Shown here piece by piece: positions 3,621 through 49,500 of a stretch of 62,651 nt of DNA. Source of the DNA: a virus (taxonomy: Duplodnaviria; Caudoviricetes). Made by a program: the position numbers and the translations under genes. Numbering within the stretch: position 1 is the stretch's first letter; each line of letters begins with the position of its first letter. A model generated the notes under the pieces. That model searched no databases. It was not told where the DNA came from and saw only the letters and a list, made by a program, of their open reading frames with translations. Location of the stretch: the IMG/VR virus record IMGVR_UViG_3300010396_000012, positions 1 through 62,651 of that record, one strand, 5' to 3'.

Positions 3621-3785
3621 TTATGCCGATGGCGCTTCCTGTTCCAGAGTTGTACCGTCGGTATGCTCTACCTGATTCGGGACACACGGCTCGAAGTTTT
3701 TATCCGCTGCGAGATACCGCTCGTAGGGATATATGTTTCCGTTCCGCATGTCCCGAAGATACACCTTTCCTTCTTCGTAGGCCAT
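3621..3785 (-). CDS. Small hypothetical protein (54 aa, MAYEEGKVYLRDMRNGNIYPYE...), absent from the ORF track
   Basis: Hand-translated; fills the gap between two structural genes; AGGTG RBS-like sequence upstream. Confidence 0.65.
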   Translation of the reverse strand: MAYEEGKVYLRDMRNGNIYPYERYLAADKNFEPCVPNQVEHTDGTTLEQEAPSA

Positions 3786-13223: not shown

Positions 13224-13415
13224 ATGACACGTAAAGATTATGTCTTGCCGGCGGCTGCCTTGCGCGACGCCAAGCCGAACGGCTACGGCCAGCACATCGG
13301 CCGCATTAGCCAATGGCGCAAAGACTGCGCCGCCATATGCAACGCACTGGCGCAAGATAACAGCGCCTTCGACGCACAACGGTTCATCCACGCATGCGAG
13401 GAAACGAAATCATGA
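13224..13415 (+). CDS. Small early hypothetical protein
   Basis: MTRKDY...A.ALAQDN..FD..RF..AC pattern common in phage early genes. Confidence 0.75.
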   Translation: MTRKDYVLPAAALRDAKPNGYGQHIGRISQWRKDCAAICNALAQDNSAFDAQRFIHACEETKS

Positions 13416-19529: not shown

Positions 19530-19655
19530 AATCCTTTGGAGCAAACACTACTATAGGTTCCGCAGATGATGCAGGCTAGAATGTACTGCGGAGTTTGTTA
19601 ATTTGTGCGGGGCTATCACGCAACAAAAATCACAGGTTCAAACGCAACAAGGTAG

Positions 19656-20594: not shown

Positions 20595-20610
20595 TTGAGT
20601 CGATAATTAA

Positions 20611-20901
20611 ATGCCCTTTCGCACGCTAGGTTCAATCAACGATGTTTGGGTGTACGATAATCCCGACACTATGAAGCGTGAGTTATTCCGCAATGGGCAT
20701 TTAATTATCCACTTCCCTGAAGTAGCGTTTGAGTTTGACGGATACTATTACAAGTGGTATCCGCATGGCGAGAACAAATATATCGAGGAAATGTATATCG
20801 AGGACATGCGGGAGCTTGGGCCGTTCGATGAAGGTCATGAGTGGGGTGACCGCATTCACAAACCCTACGATCCACTGGCGACAGAACTTTGGAGTGAGTG
20901 A
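20611..20901 (+). CDS. Hypothetical protein
   Basis: 96 aa, coupled to the next gene. Confidence 0.6.
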   Translation: MPFRTLGSINDVWVYDNPDTMKRELFRNGHLIIHFPEVAFEFDGYYYKWYPHGENKYIEEMYIEDMRELGPFDEGHEWGDRIHKPYDPLATELWSE

Positions 20902-22729: not shown

Positions 22730-23119
22730 ATGAGTCAGGTTCAGTTCGTTATCGAAAAGAACATCCCGATCCCGAAGCGTGAAGTCGAGTTCGGCCCCCG
22801 TGGTTCGCAGTACCCCATCGAGCAGATGGAAGTCGGCGACAGCTTCCGCGTGAAGATCGTCGGCGCAACCGATGCCACCGACAAGGACGGCAACCCGCTG
22901 AGCGTCGCCGAGGACGCCAAGAAGAAGGCCAGCCAGAAGCAGAGCTACTTCTCCGCACTGGGTCGCAAGCTGGGTGTCAAGGTAGCCACGCGCTACTTTG
23001 CCGAGGATGCCGAGTACGGCCCGCACCTTCGCGTGTGGCACGACGGCCCGCGTACCGCCGAAGACGATGCAGCCGAGCACGCTGAGGCCGAAGGCGCAGG
23101 CGACATCGACTTGGATTAA
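22730..23119 (+). CDS. Putative DNA-binding protein (IEKNIPIP...YP...MEVGDSF family) with acidic tail
   Basis: Motif pattern; AGGAG RBS; TTGACA upstream at 22642. Confidence 0.7.
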   Translation: MSQVQFVIEKNIPIPKREVEFGPRGSQYPIEQMEVGDSFRVKIVGATDATDKDGNPLSVAEDAKKKASQKQSYFSALGRKLGVKVATRYFAEDAEYGPHLRVWHDGPRTAEDDAAEHAEAEGAGDIDLD

Positions 23120-23130
23120 CGCAAGTCCCG

Positions 23131-23161
23131 AGCAAGGGCGCATCACTGCGCCCTTGCTTTT
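23131..23161 (+). terminator. Intrinsic terminator
   Basis: AGCAAGGGCGCA-TCAC-TGCGCCCTTGCT followed by TTT. Confidence 0.8.
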
Positions 23162-23228
23162 GCCCGTTGTTGTAGTATTATCTACAAACCCATTGCGCCG
23201 CGCTCGCGGCCTGTCTAAGGTGACCCCT

Positions 23229-23582
23229 ATGAATGACGAGACCCAAGCCCCACAGAACGGCACCGAAGGCGATCCCGCGCCGACCGAGGCCCAAGGCACG
23301 ACCACGCTTGACCTGACCGCTGCAGATGCCGCACAGGGCGCTGGCTTGCCTGTTGTCGAGGTAGCTCCGGAAGCTGTCAACGAAGCCGTATCGCTGACGC
23401 ATACCGAGAGCGGGGTGGTGACGAACCTTTCCCCGACCGCAACTACCATCCCCGCAGGCGTTCATGGCGTGGTGTCGAAGCTGGAAAGCGAACTGCATGG
23501 TGAGTTCGCCAAAGGCCAGACATCTTTCCTGACGTGGATGGGCAGCATCATCGCCGAGTTCAAAGCCCATCTAAAGATGTAG
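23229..23582 (+). CDS. Hypothetical acidic protein with an amphipathic C-terminal helix
   Basis: Start refined to MNDETQ; AAGGTG RBS. Confidence 0.7.
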   Translation: MNDETQAPQNGTEGDPAPTEAQGTTTLDLTAADAAQGAGLPVVEVAPEAVNEAVSLTHTESGVVTNLSPTATTIPAGVHGVVSKLESELHGEFAKGQTSFLTWMGSIIAEFKAHLKM

Positions 23583-23603
23583 GTGGGTGCGTTGTCGCAA
23601 GAC

Positions 23604-23780
23604 CGTAGCGTCGGCGGATTACCCTGCTGACACAGGCGTTTCCTAGGTGCTGGTCAGAGCATCCGTGAGGAGACAACCGCCGACGTTACGATTTAATACT
23701 CCGCTGCACCGTCCACGATTACGTGTACTCCCCTCCCCGCGCGTAGCTATGGATGCCTTACGGCTGTAAAGGGTGCAGCG
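23604..23780 (+). ncRNA. Candidate structured non-coding RNA with two three-way-junction domains
   Basis: 14-bp stem 23604-23617/23677-23690 and 9-bp stem 23702-23710/23772-23780; G-U pairs on the + strand; complementary loops. Confidence 0.55.
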
Positions 23781-23827
23781 AACTATTAAATCGAGGGCTA
23801 TCACGATGGAAACGACTGGTCTTTAAT

Positions 23828-24070
23828 ATGCCACGCAAAGAACCACGCGACTACGAAGCCGAGTACGATCAGTACCATGGCAAGCAAGCGCAGATTGACA
23901 ACCGGAATCAGCGGAACAAGGCTGTTCGCAAGTTGAACCGCGAAGGCAAAGCCAAGTACGATGGCAAGGAAGTCGATCATAAACGTGGAGCCAAGAAAGG
24001 CGCAAAGCTTTCCAACGCAGATGCTAACTTGCGTGTGGTCAAGAAAGTCACTAACCGGAGAAAGGGATGA
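23828..24070 (+). CDS. Small HNH-like protein
   Basis: RDY..EY..YH...RN.RN and DG.EVDH...NLR.....NR motifs. Confidence 0.7.
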   Translation: MPRKEPRDYEAEYDQYHGKQAQIDNRNQRNKAVRKLNREGKAKYDGKEVDHKRGAKKGAKLSNADANLRVVKKVTNRRKG

Positions 24071-24252
24071 CGACGAAAATTAAAGTGACGATGGAAGAAT
24101 ACGCAGGGATGCCGGTGACTGTTTGTGTCAAGACGCCAGACCGTGATCTGCAGATTGTGGACACGCTGCTGGAAAAAGGCGATAGCGCTACCGTCTACGT
24201 TCACCAGAACCAAGATGTAGTGGTCGGCGAAATCAAGACGACGGCAGCGTAG
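24067..24252 (+). CDS. Hypothetical protein
   Basis: 61 aa, ATGA coupling. Confidence 0.65.
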   Translation: MTTKIKVTMEEYAGMPVTVCVKTPDRDLQIVDTLLEKGDSATVYVHQNQDVVVGEIKTTAA

Positions 24253-24254
24253 TC

Positions 24255-24533
24255 GTGACAGGAAACTTTACGGACAACATACTCGACATGGAAGTGCGCG
24301 TGCAGCTACAGCGCGCTCAGCAAGGTTTTGCCGTCCAAGTAGCAAAAGTTAACCCCGATGCCTCACTGACTATCCTTGGCACCCTGACAGGACAGGGCGA
24401 TATGCAGTACATCGGGGAGTGGTTGAAGCAGGGACTTACGCTGCAAGTGACTCGGATCACCGTCACAGGTATACCGATCCCGCCATGGTTTGACGAAGGA
24501 TACGGTATTCCCGATTCACTTGATGGAGCGTAA
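24255..24533 (+). CDS. Hypothetical protein
   Basis: 92 aa, tightly packed. Confidence 0.6.
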   Translation: MTGNFTDNILDMEVRVQLQRAQQGFAVQVAKVNPDASLTILGTLTGQGDMQYIGEWLKQGLTLQVTRITVTGIPIPPWFDEGYGIPDSLDGA

Positions 24534-24535
24534 TC

Positions 24536-24757
24536 GTGAAAGCAGGGCTGATGGACACGCTCACCAGAATAAAGGCTGAATTGCCGTACATGGCAGTCTT
24601 TTGGTTGGCAGAGTGTGTGTTCGTAGCAATGCTTTATCGCGCAGGGGTGGTAGGGTGGTGGCCGGTTCCGCTATTGTTGATAGGCAACTTGCTTGTCCTC
24701 ATGTTGTGCGATCTGGTTGACCAATTACTAGAGCGAGTTATAAATGGCAAGGAGTGA
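24536..24757 (+). CDS. Small two-TM membrane protein
   Basis: Two hydrophobic segments; GGAG RBS. Confidence 0.65.
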   Translation: MKAGLMDTLTRIKAELPYMAVFWLAECVFVAMLYRAGVVGWWPVPLLLIGNLLVLMLCDLVDQLLERVINGKE

Positions 24758-29507: not shown

Positions 29508-29693
29508 ATGCTTGTAATGACGCACCGACAGGGCGATAAAGTATACATCGGCAACGATGGCGAAATCGTCGTCGAGGTACTGGAAGTGCATGGTGGTAAG
29601 GTGAAGCTTGGGTTCCACGCACCCAAGGACATCCCCATTGTTCGAGACAAGGTTAAGGAGCGCGACCATGGCAATACGCCTGAAAGCAATTGA
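29508..29693 (+). CDS. csrA: Carbon storage regulator CsrA/RsmA-like RNA-binding protein
   Basis: MLVMTHRQGDKVYIG...V.VLEV.G.KVKLGF.AP.DI.I.R aligns by eye with CsrA, including the RNA-binding Arg. Confidence 0.88.
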   Translation: MLVMTHRQGDKVYIGNDGEIVVEVLEVHGGKVKLGFHAPKDIPIVRDKVKERDHGNTPESN

Positions 29694-39170: not shown

Positions 39171-40280
39171 ATGTCCAACGATATTCTTGTACCCGGCAAC
39201 AATGGTCAGCTTGCCATCCCTGACTACTTGCGTGGTGCCGACTTTGGTGTCACACAGAACTTGCTGGAAGGCATGTTCCAAGGTGGCAACCGTATCGGTC
39301 TACGCAACTCCCGCTTCCGACTGGTTGTTGGCGGCGTAGAGGAAGGCATCATCCAAGAGAACTACTTGGATACCATCATTCTCGGTGCAGCACCTGGTGT
39401 GAGCCGTGTGTTCTACAGCAGTAACTACGACCCCAACGAGAATCAGCCGCCTGCCTGTTACAGCGCCGATGGCATCGTGCCGGCCGAAGACGTGAAGACC
39501 AAGCAGGCCGACAAGTGCATGACCTGTCCGCAGAACGTCAAGGGCAGCAAGATCGCCGATGGCAAGCAGTACAAGGCGTGTAGCTACTTCCGTCGTGTCG
39601 TGGTGATGCTGGCTGGTGACACGCAGGATCGTCGCGTGTTCAAGCTCGACGTGAAATCGCAGGGTTTGTTTGGCGAGAATACCGCCAACGAGAAAAACCT
39701 GAACGACTACATCGAGATGGTGGCAACGCGTGGTGTGGACTTGGGTGCGGTAGTGACTCGGATCAGCTTCGACCTTGACGCAAGCGTACCCAAGCTGGTG
39801 TTCAAGGCGCATCGGTTTGTCGATCCCGAAGAAATGTACGCCGTGCAGGACTTGGTGCAGTCCGAGGAAGTCATCAACCTCAAGCATGTCAGCATGGCAA
39901 CGCTGGATATGTCTGCCGAGGAAACGGGTGCCGAAGCCGATCAGCATCCACAGGAAGCCGCACCGCAGACCCAGCAAGCCCCAGCCCAGCAGCGTCCCGC
40001 CCCACAGCAAGCACCACGGCAACAGGCCCAGCGCGCAGCAGCCCCCGCACCGGCTCCGGCTGCCCAGCGGCAGACCACCGTGCAGATCGACAAGGACGTG
40101 CCGCCGCCCAGCCGCCCAGCCCCGCAGCAAGCCCAGCGTGCGCCCCGGCAGGCTCCGCAGCAGGCAACCCAACGCCCCGCTGCAGCCCAGCAAGCCGCAC
40201 GTCCCGCCCCGGCTCCGGCCCCCGTGCAGGAAGCGATGACCGACGACGACCTTGGCGCGTTGCTCGACAGCTTGGAGTAA
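39171..40280 (+). CDS. Putative ssDNA-binding/recombination protein with a Q/A/P-rich disordered tail and acidic tip
   Basis: P.C.S.DG..P, C..CP.N..GS and KAC motifs; ends DDDLGALLDSLE. Confidence 0.6.
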   Translation: MSNDILVPGNNGQLAIPDYLRGADFGVTQNLLEGMFQGGNRIGLRNSRFRLVVGGVEEGIIQENYLDTIILGAAPGVSRVFYSSNYDPNENQPPACYSADGIVPAEDVKTKQADKCMTCPQNVKGSKIADGKQYKACSYFRRVVVMLAGDTQDRRVFKLDVKSQGLFGENTANEKNLNDYIEMVATRGVDLGAVVTRISFDLDASVPKLVFKAHRFVDPEEMYAVQDLVQSEEVINLKHVSMATLDMSAEETGAEADQHPQEAAPQTQQAPAQQRPAPQQAPRQQAQRAAAPAPAPAAQRQTTVQIDKDVPPPSRPAPQQAQRAPRQAPQQATQRPAAAQQAARPAPAPAPVQEAMTDDDLGALLDSLE

Positions 40281-46500: not shown

Positions 46501-49500
46501 TCTTCCCCCGGCGACTTGAGGATGGCGTCAAGGGCACGGCTTACTTTGTGGTTGCTGTCCAAGCCCAGCATCGACTTGATATGCTGGAAGAATCCACCTA
46601 GCCATTGCTTGATGCGATCTGCTTTTCCATTCTTTACCCAACGATTGTTCAGCAAGTCCGTCGATTCGACGGCCCAGTATTCACTAGGGTTCTTGTACTT
46701 ATAGAACTCGTCGTACGGCAGCTTCTTGCTTGTACGCATGAGTAACGACATTTCCTTCTCTGCTTCTAGCGAAGGATGCGCGTAGTTTTCGATGGCAAGC
46801 TGTATGAACCGCTCACCATCCTTGTTCCCATTCTTGATAACCTGCTTGAGTTTGTTCTGCAGACGCCCGATATATTCATTACGAATATCGTTCTGCATGT
46901 CTTCCGGCATTAGTTGTTCTGCACTGTGCATAATTTCATGCACGGCAGTACCGGGATTTGTTGCTGTGGAATTAATATGGAACAGACGCTGCGACGGGCT
47001 GAATCGTCCACCCGGCCCTTTCTCGCCAAGATCGTGGATGCGTACGGCAAGATAATTCGCAAGGTTTGGATTCTTATCCAGCAGCCATTGCGCGAACTTG
47101 CCAGCTTCATAGTGATCGCTGCCGGGTTCATGCGACGCAATCATTTCCTGCAGACGCTGGCGTACGTATTCTACACCACGACGCGGCTTACGGCCCATGT
47201 CGCGCAGCGCACGCTCCATCTTGGCGGCTTCCATGTCGTCATGAAGCTTCTGCAGTTCCGCACCCGTCTCGTGAATATCTGCGCCTTCACGAACACGGTT
47301 AATGATTTCACCGACACGGCGCTTGGTTTGAACAGGGGCAATCTTATCGACTTCCTTTTCGGTACCGACCGTCGAGGCATGCCGCTCGTCGGCCATCTGC
47401 TCAAGATCATCCATGTGCAGCGTGTATTCGCCGTGTGGGCCGAAGTTACTTTCCTCGTGCCCACTCGTCTGCGCGCCTTCATGCACTTGGTCGAGTTCAT
47501 CCTTGGCGCGATTTAATTTACCAGCAGCGGTGTCACCTGTCAGATCGTCGCCGTGGGACATCACTGTCCAATCGTCTTTGCCTACTCCACGCTGTACGAC
47601 CACTTCGCCGGGTCGAGCGTGGGTATCAACGGCATCGACGCCACTGAGCGGTTCAACACTTCCATCGCGGCGGATAATAGCTCGTGTTTGCCCAGCGGCG
47701 CGTTCGTCGCGCAAACGATTCTGTGCTTCGAGACTAGCGGATGACTCCCCACTGGCGTTGTTCTGGTGGTATTCGTCATTAAGGTAGTCATCGTTCGGCT
47801 CGCTTTCATTGGCGCGTGCTTCGGCTACGTCTTCCTTGAGCGACGCGGGAGTACGCTTGAGCGGCTTGGTGGCTTTCGCCATCGTCGGCGTCTTAGCCTG
47901 TTGGCGAAGCCACTTCACGTCATCATTGGTAAGATCACCTGTCTGCTTCCACCCGTCCAGTAGATCGCCCAAGTCATGACTGTCGCCCATACGTGCAGTG
48001 GCGACGGCATCGTGAATCTGGTCAATCGTATGCTGAGGCAGCGTATCCGCAAAACGGTCACGAAGCTGTTGGTCAAGCTCCGTTACGGCTGCCCCCGTAT
48101 TAGCTACGGGGGCTTCGCTTTTTGGGGGCTTTGCGGCCCCTCCTTTCAGCGGCTTGGGTTTAGCTACGGGCGCAGCGGGTGCCGGTTCAGGCGGCGGAGC
48201 GGCTGCCTTTTTCAAACCTTTAGGTTTCGTAACAGGAGTCGTGACCTGTTGGTTTGCCTTCTCTGCGATGTCACGCTCGTTCTTGAGGAATGCCCCAAGC
48301 TGTTCCGGCGTCGAAATACGACCATCCTGAATAGCCGTCTTTACCGCGAGGAAGTGCGGATCGGATCGGAAAGCATCCTCGCCTGCACCCCCGGACACGC
48401 CAGCATTCATCGCTGCCTGCATGTACTGTTCATTGTACTTCTGCTCGGCATTCTTGCGTACGCGTGCCTTTAGCTTGTTGGTTGCGGTCGGCGCAGTGCC
48501 CTGCGGTGCAAGAGCTTCCGTTACCGTGCTGGCGACGTTATCGTGATCCTGCGCTTGTTCGGCATTAGTTTTCGGTACTGGCGCTGCGGCAGGCGTAGGA
48601 GCCGGCGCGGGGGCTGCAGCTTCCGGAGCTTTCGGTGTAACTTTATTCCCCGGCGCCGCTTTGCTGGTTGCCAATCCCGTAAGTAGCTTTTGTACATCGG
48701 CTTCGGAACTCACATTACCCTGTTGCACCAAGCGCATGACCGCCTTACCCAGCGGCGACTCATGCAACTGCGGGTTCTGCACATCGCCCGTCGCTACGCC
48801 ATAGAGCATCTTGGCCTGCGTCGGAATGTCAGTACCATCCAACACGCCAGCCGTGACCGACTGGATCGTAGCGTTCGGCGTAGGCGCTTGTGCAGCGGTA
48901 CCGGGAACCTGCTGCCCACTAATATCCGAAGGAAGTGGCTGCTCACCACCCGTCGGGCCGGCTGCGGCCGGTGTGGGTTGCGCTGCAGGTTGTGCACTAG
49001 GCGGCGTAGTTTCTGCCGCTGCTGCAGCCGGAGTTTCGGCCGGTTTGCCAAACTGCTGTATCGTCTGGTCAATCGCCCCTGCATCCAGCTTCGGATTACG
49101 CTTGGTCAGATACGTCGCGGCTTCTTCTATAGCGAACTGACGCTGCTCTGCCGACATCGCGTTCCATTCTTCATCCGGAACAAAGTGACGAGCAAGCTGC
49201 ACCGCTCCATCGACGGCCGATTCAGGCGTCGTGGCGTACTTGACAATGGCTTGTACCGTACGGCTACGGCCTTGACCATTCAACTCCTTGGTAAACTCCT
49301 TCATGGAGTTAGCGTGCTGCTCGGCCGTCATGCCCGTAGCATGCGCATTCGTATTCACTGCAGCGTTGTACTGTGCGGCAATGTTTCCATCGTTGCCTGC
49401 AGCCGGAGCCGTACCTGCCGGGATCATGGCAATGTGCCCATCAGGCATCCGCACTACCGTCGATCCATCGACCTGCGTACCCAGCACTTCGGCACCTTCC

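Follow-up and report, generated by a model that had tools for sequence, protein, structure and literature searches.

Between an early gene, here called gene X, and the gene for a small basic protein, the phage carries a non-coding spacer of 245 nt (23583–23827), in which the domain analysed here, D1, is located. D1 is a three-way-junction domain of 87 nt (23604–23690, + strand). Positions are those of the window, i.e., the whole stretch of DNA analysed, which is a complete viral contig of 62,651 bp carrying direct terminal repeats. In this region of the genome, every gene is encoded on the + strand. Gene X (23229–23582) specifies a protein of 117 amino acids without a family, with homologs P0001 and P0002 and a further one in the metagenome contig L036, and its stop codon is separated from the start of D1 by 21 nt. 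Upstream of gene X there is a canonical intrinsic terminator together with a sigma70-like promoter region (23131–23195, + strand), both recognized from an inverted repeat and from the alignment with L036. The terminator has a 12-bp stem, a 4-nt loop, and the sequence TTTTG, and its stem includes compensatory changes between the window and L036 (955–1020). Conservation in L036 extends past this terminator to a promoter-like block of 17 nt (TTGTAGTATTATCTAC-like), which is probably the early promoter, as assigned by eye.

On its 3’ side D1 is abutted by a second stem-closed module, D2 (23689–23793, + strand), which has a C-rich apical loop and a predicted stability of -41.9 kcal/mol (z -7.49). 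It is followed by the motif (G)GGGCTATCAC at 23794–23804, which trails the last module in all close relatives, and by a mini-ORF of six codons (METTGL; 23806–23826), whose stop codon lies one base ahead of the next start codon (TAAtATG). That start codon belongs to the small basic protein (80 amino acids, beginning MPRKEPR; 23828–24070, + strand), a member of phrog_4590, which is a family without known function. The basic-protein gene has no Shine-Dalgarno sequence of its own. The sequence suggests translational coupling between the mini-ORF and the basic-protein gene; several deletions are present in the mini-ORF segment of the contig from soil run X6. The only ORFs overlapping D1 are short and unconserved. 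A scan for terminators and promoters made no call within 23583–23827, and no + strand terminator was called between 22500 and 24500.

The phage encodes a terminase large subunit, a portal/adaptor, an internal virion protein, a family-A-like DNA polymerase, a helicase, and a primase-helicase. Its portal has only 25–30% identity with those of podoviruses of Rhizobium, Roseobacter, Puniceispirillum, and Pelagibacter, and no DNA-level match to the phage was obtained with megablast and blastn against 50,697 phage records. Judged from its genes, it is a terminase-using podovirus of 62.6 kb and is not phi29-like. The sequencing runs which contain it are soil metagenomes; none of the 20 runs listed is an RNA run, a result that is neutral as to expression. 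No tRNA or tmRNA was detected in the window by ARAGORN, whereas in related phages between one and three tRNA genes are present, some 2 kb downstream from the spacer (L002, 5302–5939; L003, 5062–5134). A CsrA homolog is encoded at 29508–29663 (Pfam PF02599; 58 bits against a cut-off of 27).

The helix and loop coordinates of D1 given in the preliminary description proved correct, and both the RNAfold minimum free energy (MFE) structure and the centroid correspond to the three-way junction proposed there. The domain is closed by P1, a helix of 14 bp with one G-U pair (23604–23617/23677–23690), which is apparent from the sequence, from RNAfold, and from the inverted repeat listing. P2 is a hairpin of 4 bp (23623–23626/23633–23636) with the loop CTGACA (23627–23632). 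P3 (23638–23674) is composed of P3a, which has 7 bp including one G-U pair (23638–23644/23668–23674; sequence and RNAfold), a 1x4 internal loop, and P3b, which has 6 bp (23646–23651/23658–23663) and the loop GGTCAG (23652–23657). The interior enclosed by P1 is thus branched and 59 nt long, and the domain is followed by the 3’ tail AUUUAAUA, in which 4 of 8 residues are U.

On the + strand D1 has a predicted free energy of -45.0 kcal/mol (z -5.65), and none of 200 dinucleotide shuffles was equally stable in RNAfold. The opposite strand folds less well by 7 kcal/mol (-38.0 kcal/mol; z -3.64), because three G-U pairs are turned into C-A mismatches; of the 31 pairs of D1, 3 are G-U, and A-C mismatches are absent. 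For comparison, overlapping 87-nt windows taken over the genome at a step of 4 (15642 per strand) have a mean of -22.4 kcal/mol on the + strand, with a standard deviation of 5.4. D1 ranks third in stability among the + strand windows, two other + strand regions folding better. The folding results indicate that the predicted structure of D1 is real and no product of chance. The other windows of highest stability (48525–48611 and 48949–49035 on the + strand; 40025–40211 and 13249–13335 on the - strand) reach -46 to -49 kcal/mol, and several of these are antisense to, or within, long ORFs.

The preliminary description took D1 to be an undescribed structured phage RNA, and no Rfam family was in fact matched at gathering thresholds over the whole window. 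When the cut-off was relaxed to E<=10 for 23400–23900, only snoZ103, GlsR13, and RydC were returned, all of them noise far below their own cut-offs. D1 matches none of the curated Rfam ribozyme or riboswitch models. For the spacers of the relatives, Rfam returned only tRNAs located elsewhere and weak, overlapping Plastid-ycf2 matches. A role as a CsrA sponge was considered and rejected, as a hand count gave 4 GGA triplets for the 245-nt spacer, which is close to chance expectation, and no hairpin loop of D1 contains one.

The distribution of D1 is very narrow. At the DNA level it was absent from the 50,697 phage records (megablast and blastn), and a BLAST comparison of 23590–23800 with four related records gave a single chance match of 14 nt. 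A covariance model of the domain (R1) matched D1 alone in G000–G003, and, across 79 metagenome loci from relatives, a single fragment (E value 4.7). A blastn-short search with D1 over all collected DNA gave no match above 14 nt, and there were no exact matches to a D1 20-mer in genome contigs, to a D1 22-mer in viral contigs, or to a D2 24-mer in viral contigs. Queries with gene X or with a 129-amino-acid gene retrieved no relatives from the viral contigs. Thus neither the three complete related genomes nor the 79 metagenome loci contain a homolog in which compensatory changes could be sought, and covariation in D1 cannot be shown for this reason.

Contigs from four soil runs were compared over 22800–24600. 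Run X2 did not cover D1, and the other three (X5, X6, and X7, one contig each) come from three studies of one year, which possibly represent one campaign. In X5–X7, gene X has differences of a few per cent and is followed by 41 letters in place of the interior of D1, and then by D2. The segment exchanged comprises 81 nt (23607–23687), with the joint running from 23606 to 23688, so that P2, P3, and most of P1 are missing from the near-identical phage while the outermost bases of P1 and D2 are retained. In contrast, there are no differences at 23688–23793 in the X5 and X7 contigs. With a neighbouring divergence of 3–5%, the probability of finding 0 differences in 106 nt is approximately 0.01 (calculated by hand for 4%), and D2 is therefore either conserved or recently exchanged, which D1 is not. 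Based on these comparisons, D1 is a strain-specific orphan in a fast-changing spacer. The suggestion that it might be an RNA of the conserved pRNA, riboswitch, or ribozyme kind is accordingly not supported, as it has no homolog and is replaced in near-identical phage.

Relatives of the locus were located by means of the basic-protein gene, and include the complete genomes L002/G001, L003/G002, and L010/G003 as well as the closer metagenome contigs L031/L032, L035, L036, and L037. Their basic proteins are 73–80% identical to that of the window, and the gene, including homologs with 79% identity, is again downstream of stem-closed modules. One to three such modules occupy the spacer (a single one in L002 and in L010), with sequences that are unrelated to one another and to D1, and the spacer ends in (G)GGGCTATCA(C) in all three complete genomes and in the closer contigs. 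The closing stems of the modules extend over 14–31 positions. The z values lie between -6.2 and -11.6 for 11 of the 14 modules folded; two are weakly stable (L032, 363–477, z -2.46; L035, 1290–1406, z -1.74), and the first hairpin of L003 has a z of -4.16. On the 3’ side of the gene X homolog, L036 has a perfect hairpin of 30 nt (13 bp), followed by an A/U-rich stretch, and L003 has a hairpin of 57 nt. From the sequences compared, it seems that the site after gene X needs a stable hairpin, and not D1 specifically.

The modules also have common borders. The sequence TTAAT/ATTAA is present at the 3’ end of 11 of 15 modules and at the 5’ end of 9 of 15, compared with 5.5% of random 22-nt windows. 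Its full form, AATTAATT, is self-reverse-complementary, and is therefore able to lengthen the stem on both sides. A raw ungapped walk along the closing stems of the 15 modules gave 25 G-T against 9 A-C oppositions; when the walk in D2 was cut at its closing stem of 22 positions, the numbers were 21 and 4 (one-sided binomial, approximately 5e-4, by hand). This excess of G-T over A-C argues for selection on the folded + strand RNA. The preliminary description had read the G-U pairs of D1 as a sign of selection at the RNA level on the + strand, and this reading is upheld both by the strand difference in D1 and by the sibling modules; the sequence points to selection on the sense-strand RNA across the locus. 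The modules were considered as MITEs or other transposons and rejected as such, since their closing stems differ wholly in sequence and have no shared terminal inverted repeat.

Because the closing helices are conserved, the sense strand is selected, and the site is intercistronic, we propose that D1 acts in cis at the 3’ end of the message from gene X, as an element of mRNA processing or stability, a reading which we hold tentatively, at a probability of about 0.45. D1 would be part of the sense-strand transcript of the early operon, in the 3’ untranslated spacer after gene X; a single message would extend across the region, and a nuclease would act upon it. The property of importance would be a very stable stem-closed fold, and not the particular interior. 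The functional helix might be P1 (14 bp), perhaps stacked on P3 (13 bp; stacking across the junction is assumed), while the interior formed by P2 and P3, together with its complementary loops, would be evolutionarily free filler. Such a helix could be employed as a double-strand-specific processing site of the RNase III type, or else as a barrier to 3’-to-5’ exonucleases. In either role, it would fix the 3’ terminus of the gene X message and protect it, while transcription runs on into the genes downstream. There is no canonical terminator at D1 and no terminator or promoter call in the spacer, and therefore the downstream genes probably need read-through. A phage-specific promoter may nevertheless be present in or after D2, and in that case D1 could end the transcript.

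In T7, RNase III sites are found between early genes. D1 resembles the RNase III signals of phage early mRNAs (T7 R1.1 type), as well as 3’ stabiliser hairpins, in that it is intercistronic, being placed between two + strand genes, favours the sense (+) strand, is very stable, and belongs to a locus in which structure is kept without sequence. It differs from the T7 R1.1-type signals, which are two-turn hairpins with an internal loop, in that it is predicted to branch into a three-way junction, closed by a helix of 14 bp. RNase III substrates are described as typically having two helical turns, a length that can be made up by stacked short helices (PMC1540722). P1 alone, with 14 bp, is below the usual two turns, and P3 adds 13 bp if stacked. 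Restricted cleavage by RNase III is described as leaving 3’ hairpins which protect against exonucleases (PMC1540722), and double cleavage in vivo is reported from intramolecular stems (PMC6212723). The processing or stability reading gives no account of the 5-nt match between the two loops, which is considered below.

The organization of the spacer also has a counterpart in the PeSL cassettes of T4-type phages, where conserved promoter/stem-loop motifs are reported to border variable segments and to mediate indels (PMC4122927). These short conserved motifs and stem-loops are described from early, plastic regions, in which they mark insertions, deletions, and replacements that distinguish close relatives (PMC4122927, PMC2839356). 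In the present locus, variable modules are similarly bounded by TTAAT and GGGGCTATCAC, and both replacement and insertion events were seen. However, the units that vary here are non-coding stem-closed RNA modules and not ORFs, and the host phage is a podovirus. As to a promoter contained in the motif, A/T-rich -10-like hexamers were recognized by eye 5–8 nt before GGGG, and there is no -35 element. The motif GGGGCTATCAC itself is present at two non-coding sites in the window (19609–19619 and 23794–23804), likewise at two in G001 and in G002, and at one in G003. Each site is right after a hairpin or module and near sigma70-like promoters, and sits 5–8 nt past an A/T-rich -10-like hexamer. From its placement, the motif may represent a conserved start site of transcription, or else an operator or a site of processing.

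It is doubtful that D1 is instead a partial terminator or attenuator which closes the gene X unit, with the branched interior as an expanded loop and the tail as a weak U-tract. Like an intrinsic terminator, D1 has a GC-rich stem right after a stop codon and then an A/U-rich stretch, and with its own terminator-promoter block upstream, gene X looks like a separate unit. The perfect hairpin and A/U-rich stretch in the same position of L036 are consistent with this explanation, as are the TTAAT-type A/U-rich motifs that follow so many of the module ends. Yet intrinsic terminators have a loop of 3–8 nt and a U-run, and the 59-nt branched interior of D1 and its tail, with no proper U-run, are off this consensus; moreover, the scan made no call, and the terminator demonstrable in the clade, that upstream of gene X, is canonical and covarying. 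In addition, neither the scan nor inspection found a promoter between D1 and the conserved downstream gene, and efficient termination at D1 would therefore silence that gene.

The preliminary description placed the emphasis on the two loops, and envisaged an RNA that oligomerises or is used as a protein scaffold or decoy. Extended to the locus, the idea would be that D1 is freed from the mRNA as a trans-acting or self-associating RNA, that its loops kiss within or between molecules, that it acts as a scaffold or as a decoy for host defence, and that the spacer is a site at which RNA cassettes are swapped. This we consider quite unlikely. The complementarity of the loops was confirmed: the hexaloops CUGACA and GGUCAG form an exact Watson-Crick match over 5 nt, for which the probability, given two random hexaloops with the base composition of D1, is 0.0037 (about 0.4%). 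The match was noted post hoc, and is suggestive. The interlocking functional RNA inferred from it found no support, as complementarity of at least 5 nt between loops occurs in only one, D1, of the eight modules with at least two hairpin loops, and is missing from the seven others (the runner-up, in L010, has 4 nt). The arms are furthermore unequal (P2, 4 bp; P3, 13 bp) and the linkers are of one nucleotide, so that by reasoning an intramolecular kiss looks strained. The exceptional stability of D1 and its lack of a known family would suit a trans-acting RNA, as would the hypervariability of the locus among close relatives, and excision would be possible at the long closing stems. Loci for anti-defence are often hypervariable. 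On the other hand, D1 has no homolog, and hence no covariation, it is lost in near-identical phage, and no promoter for it was seen. A role in oligomerisation, as a scaffold, or as a decoy remains without support.

The comparison with phi29 pRNA made on that occasion is based on two features which D1 does share, namely a three-way junction and a pair of loops that are Watson-Crick complementary. The pRNA is described as an RNA of 174 nt with six helices, encoded near the genome end, and having a secondary structure that is conserved among relatives even where sequence identity is low (PMC5066667). According to the same source it is confined to protein-primed phi29-like phages of about 20 kb, whose genome is linear and carries terminal protein, and whose packaging ATPase depends on the RNA (PMC5066667). 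D1, by contrast, is an unconserved element of 87 nt in the middle of the genome of a terminase-encoding phage of 62.6 kb, and has no Rfam match. It was rejected as a pRNA on the grounds of family model, phage type, size and helix count, and structural conservation.

A rather improbable explanation is that D1 is without a role of its own, having arisen as a by-product at a hairpin hotspot through palindrome growth or template switching, or else is an element acting at the DNA level, such as a cruciform or a protein-binding site. An orphan sequence that is replaced in close relatives is what a by-product would look like, and the loop of P3b comes close to the reverse complement of the loop of P2, which is the outcome expected of an inverted duplication. 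The great preponderance of G-U over A-C in D1 and its sibling modules argues for selection on the + strand RNA and hence against such an origin, and the stability of D1 is extreme relative to the genome background. With 59 nt between the arms, extrusion of a cruciform is unlikely.

Two further proposals are very improbable in our estimation. In the first of these, D1 and D2 together would be a leader for translational control of the mini-ORF and the basic-protein gene, for example by switching between pairings in which the GGGG ribosome-binding stretch is exposed or hidden. The C-rich loop of D2 (CUCCCCU type) recurs in relatives and lies just ahead of the GGGGCUAUCAC motif and of the start codon. 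Structured or conserved leaders are found with the more distant homologs of the basic-protein gene as well, and 23659–23667 in D1 is able to pair with 23748–23756 in D2 over 9 bp, including 2 G-U. However, this alternative pairing is absent from the MFE fold, phage that keep D2 unchanged can dispense with D1, and L002 and L010 have a single module. In the second, unrelated and highly structured non-coding RNAs would be exchanged as cassettes at the spacer, between borders formed by palindromic AAUUAAUU and within an early operon that is otherwise conserved in a clade of soil podoviruses. D1, as one strain-specific cassette, would be cut out at its long closing stem and act in trans via its loops, through self-association or through mimicry of a host RNA, e.g., as a defence decoy.

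D1 alone, as a dispensable orphan fold, is of little significance, and the modular spacer is the better lead. What the comparison brings out is a clade of uncultured soil podoviruses that keeps a slot in its early operon for differing, extremely stable, stem-closed RNA modules with short palindromic borders. If the modules are processing or stability elements, as in the reading preferred here, phages outside the T7 group would be using signals that consist of structure only and are turned over rapidly. If any module acts in trans, the spacer would be a non-coding counterpart of the hypervariable islands of phage accessory genes.

Modules of the D2 type were found in the window (23689–23793) and in L002 (2883–2988), L003 (2573–2723), L035 (1191–1288), L036 (1369–1475), and L057 (1301–1417). 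They share the C-rich apical motif CUCCCCU/CCCCUGCG above long closing stems, and in L057 the motif is upstream of a basic-protein homolog with 54% identity. On sequence grounds, the C-rich motif of D2 may form pairs with the GGGG stretch that follows closely on its 3’ side, or may bind a protein. Marine relatives of the basic-protein gene (L038, L039, L089–L092, L096, and L098–L100) have in common a highly conserved non-coding leader of about 170 nt. It is located approximately 200 nt upstream of the gene and carries a GGGGGGUAAGGGGGG hairpin, with compensatory changes in 0 of 54 predicted pairs; these leaders had no match in Rfam. In G002 (L003, 2843–3001), the GGGGCTATCACG motif is separated from the basic-protein gene by an inserted ORF of 52 codons. 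This insertion at the motif is an example of a cassette-like gene insertion, and the product appears LysM-like by eye.

Other structured elements were encountered elsewhere in the window. A 22-nt inverted repeat with TAATTAAAT (20598–20713; z -3.84) encloses the start codon and the first 30 codons of the ORF at 20611–20901, and by its predicted fold may occlude this start codon. Between two late genes on the - strand there is an 82-nt stem-closed structure (3676–3757; z -5.33), the 14-bp closing stem of which is contiguous on the sense (-) strand only. This predicted structure suggests that stem-closed elements are in general use by the phage.
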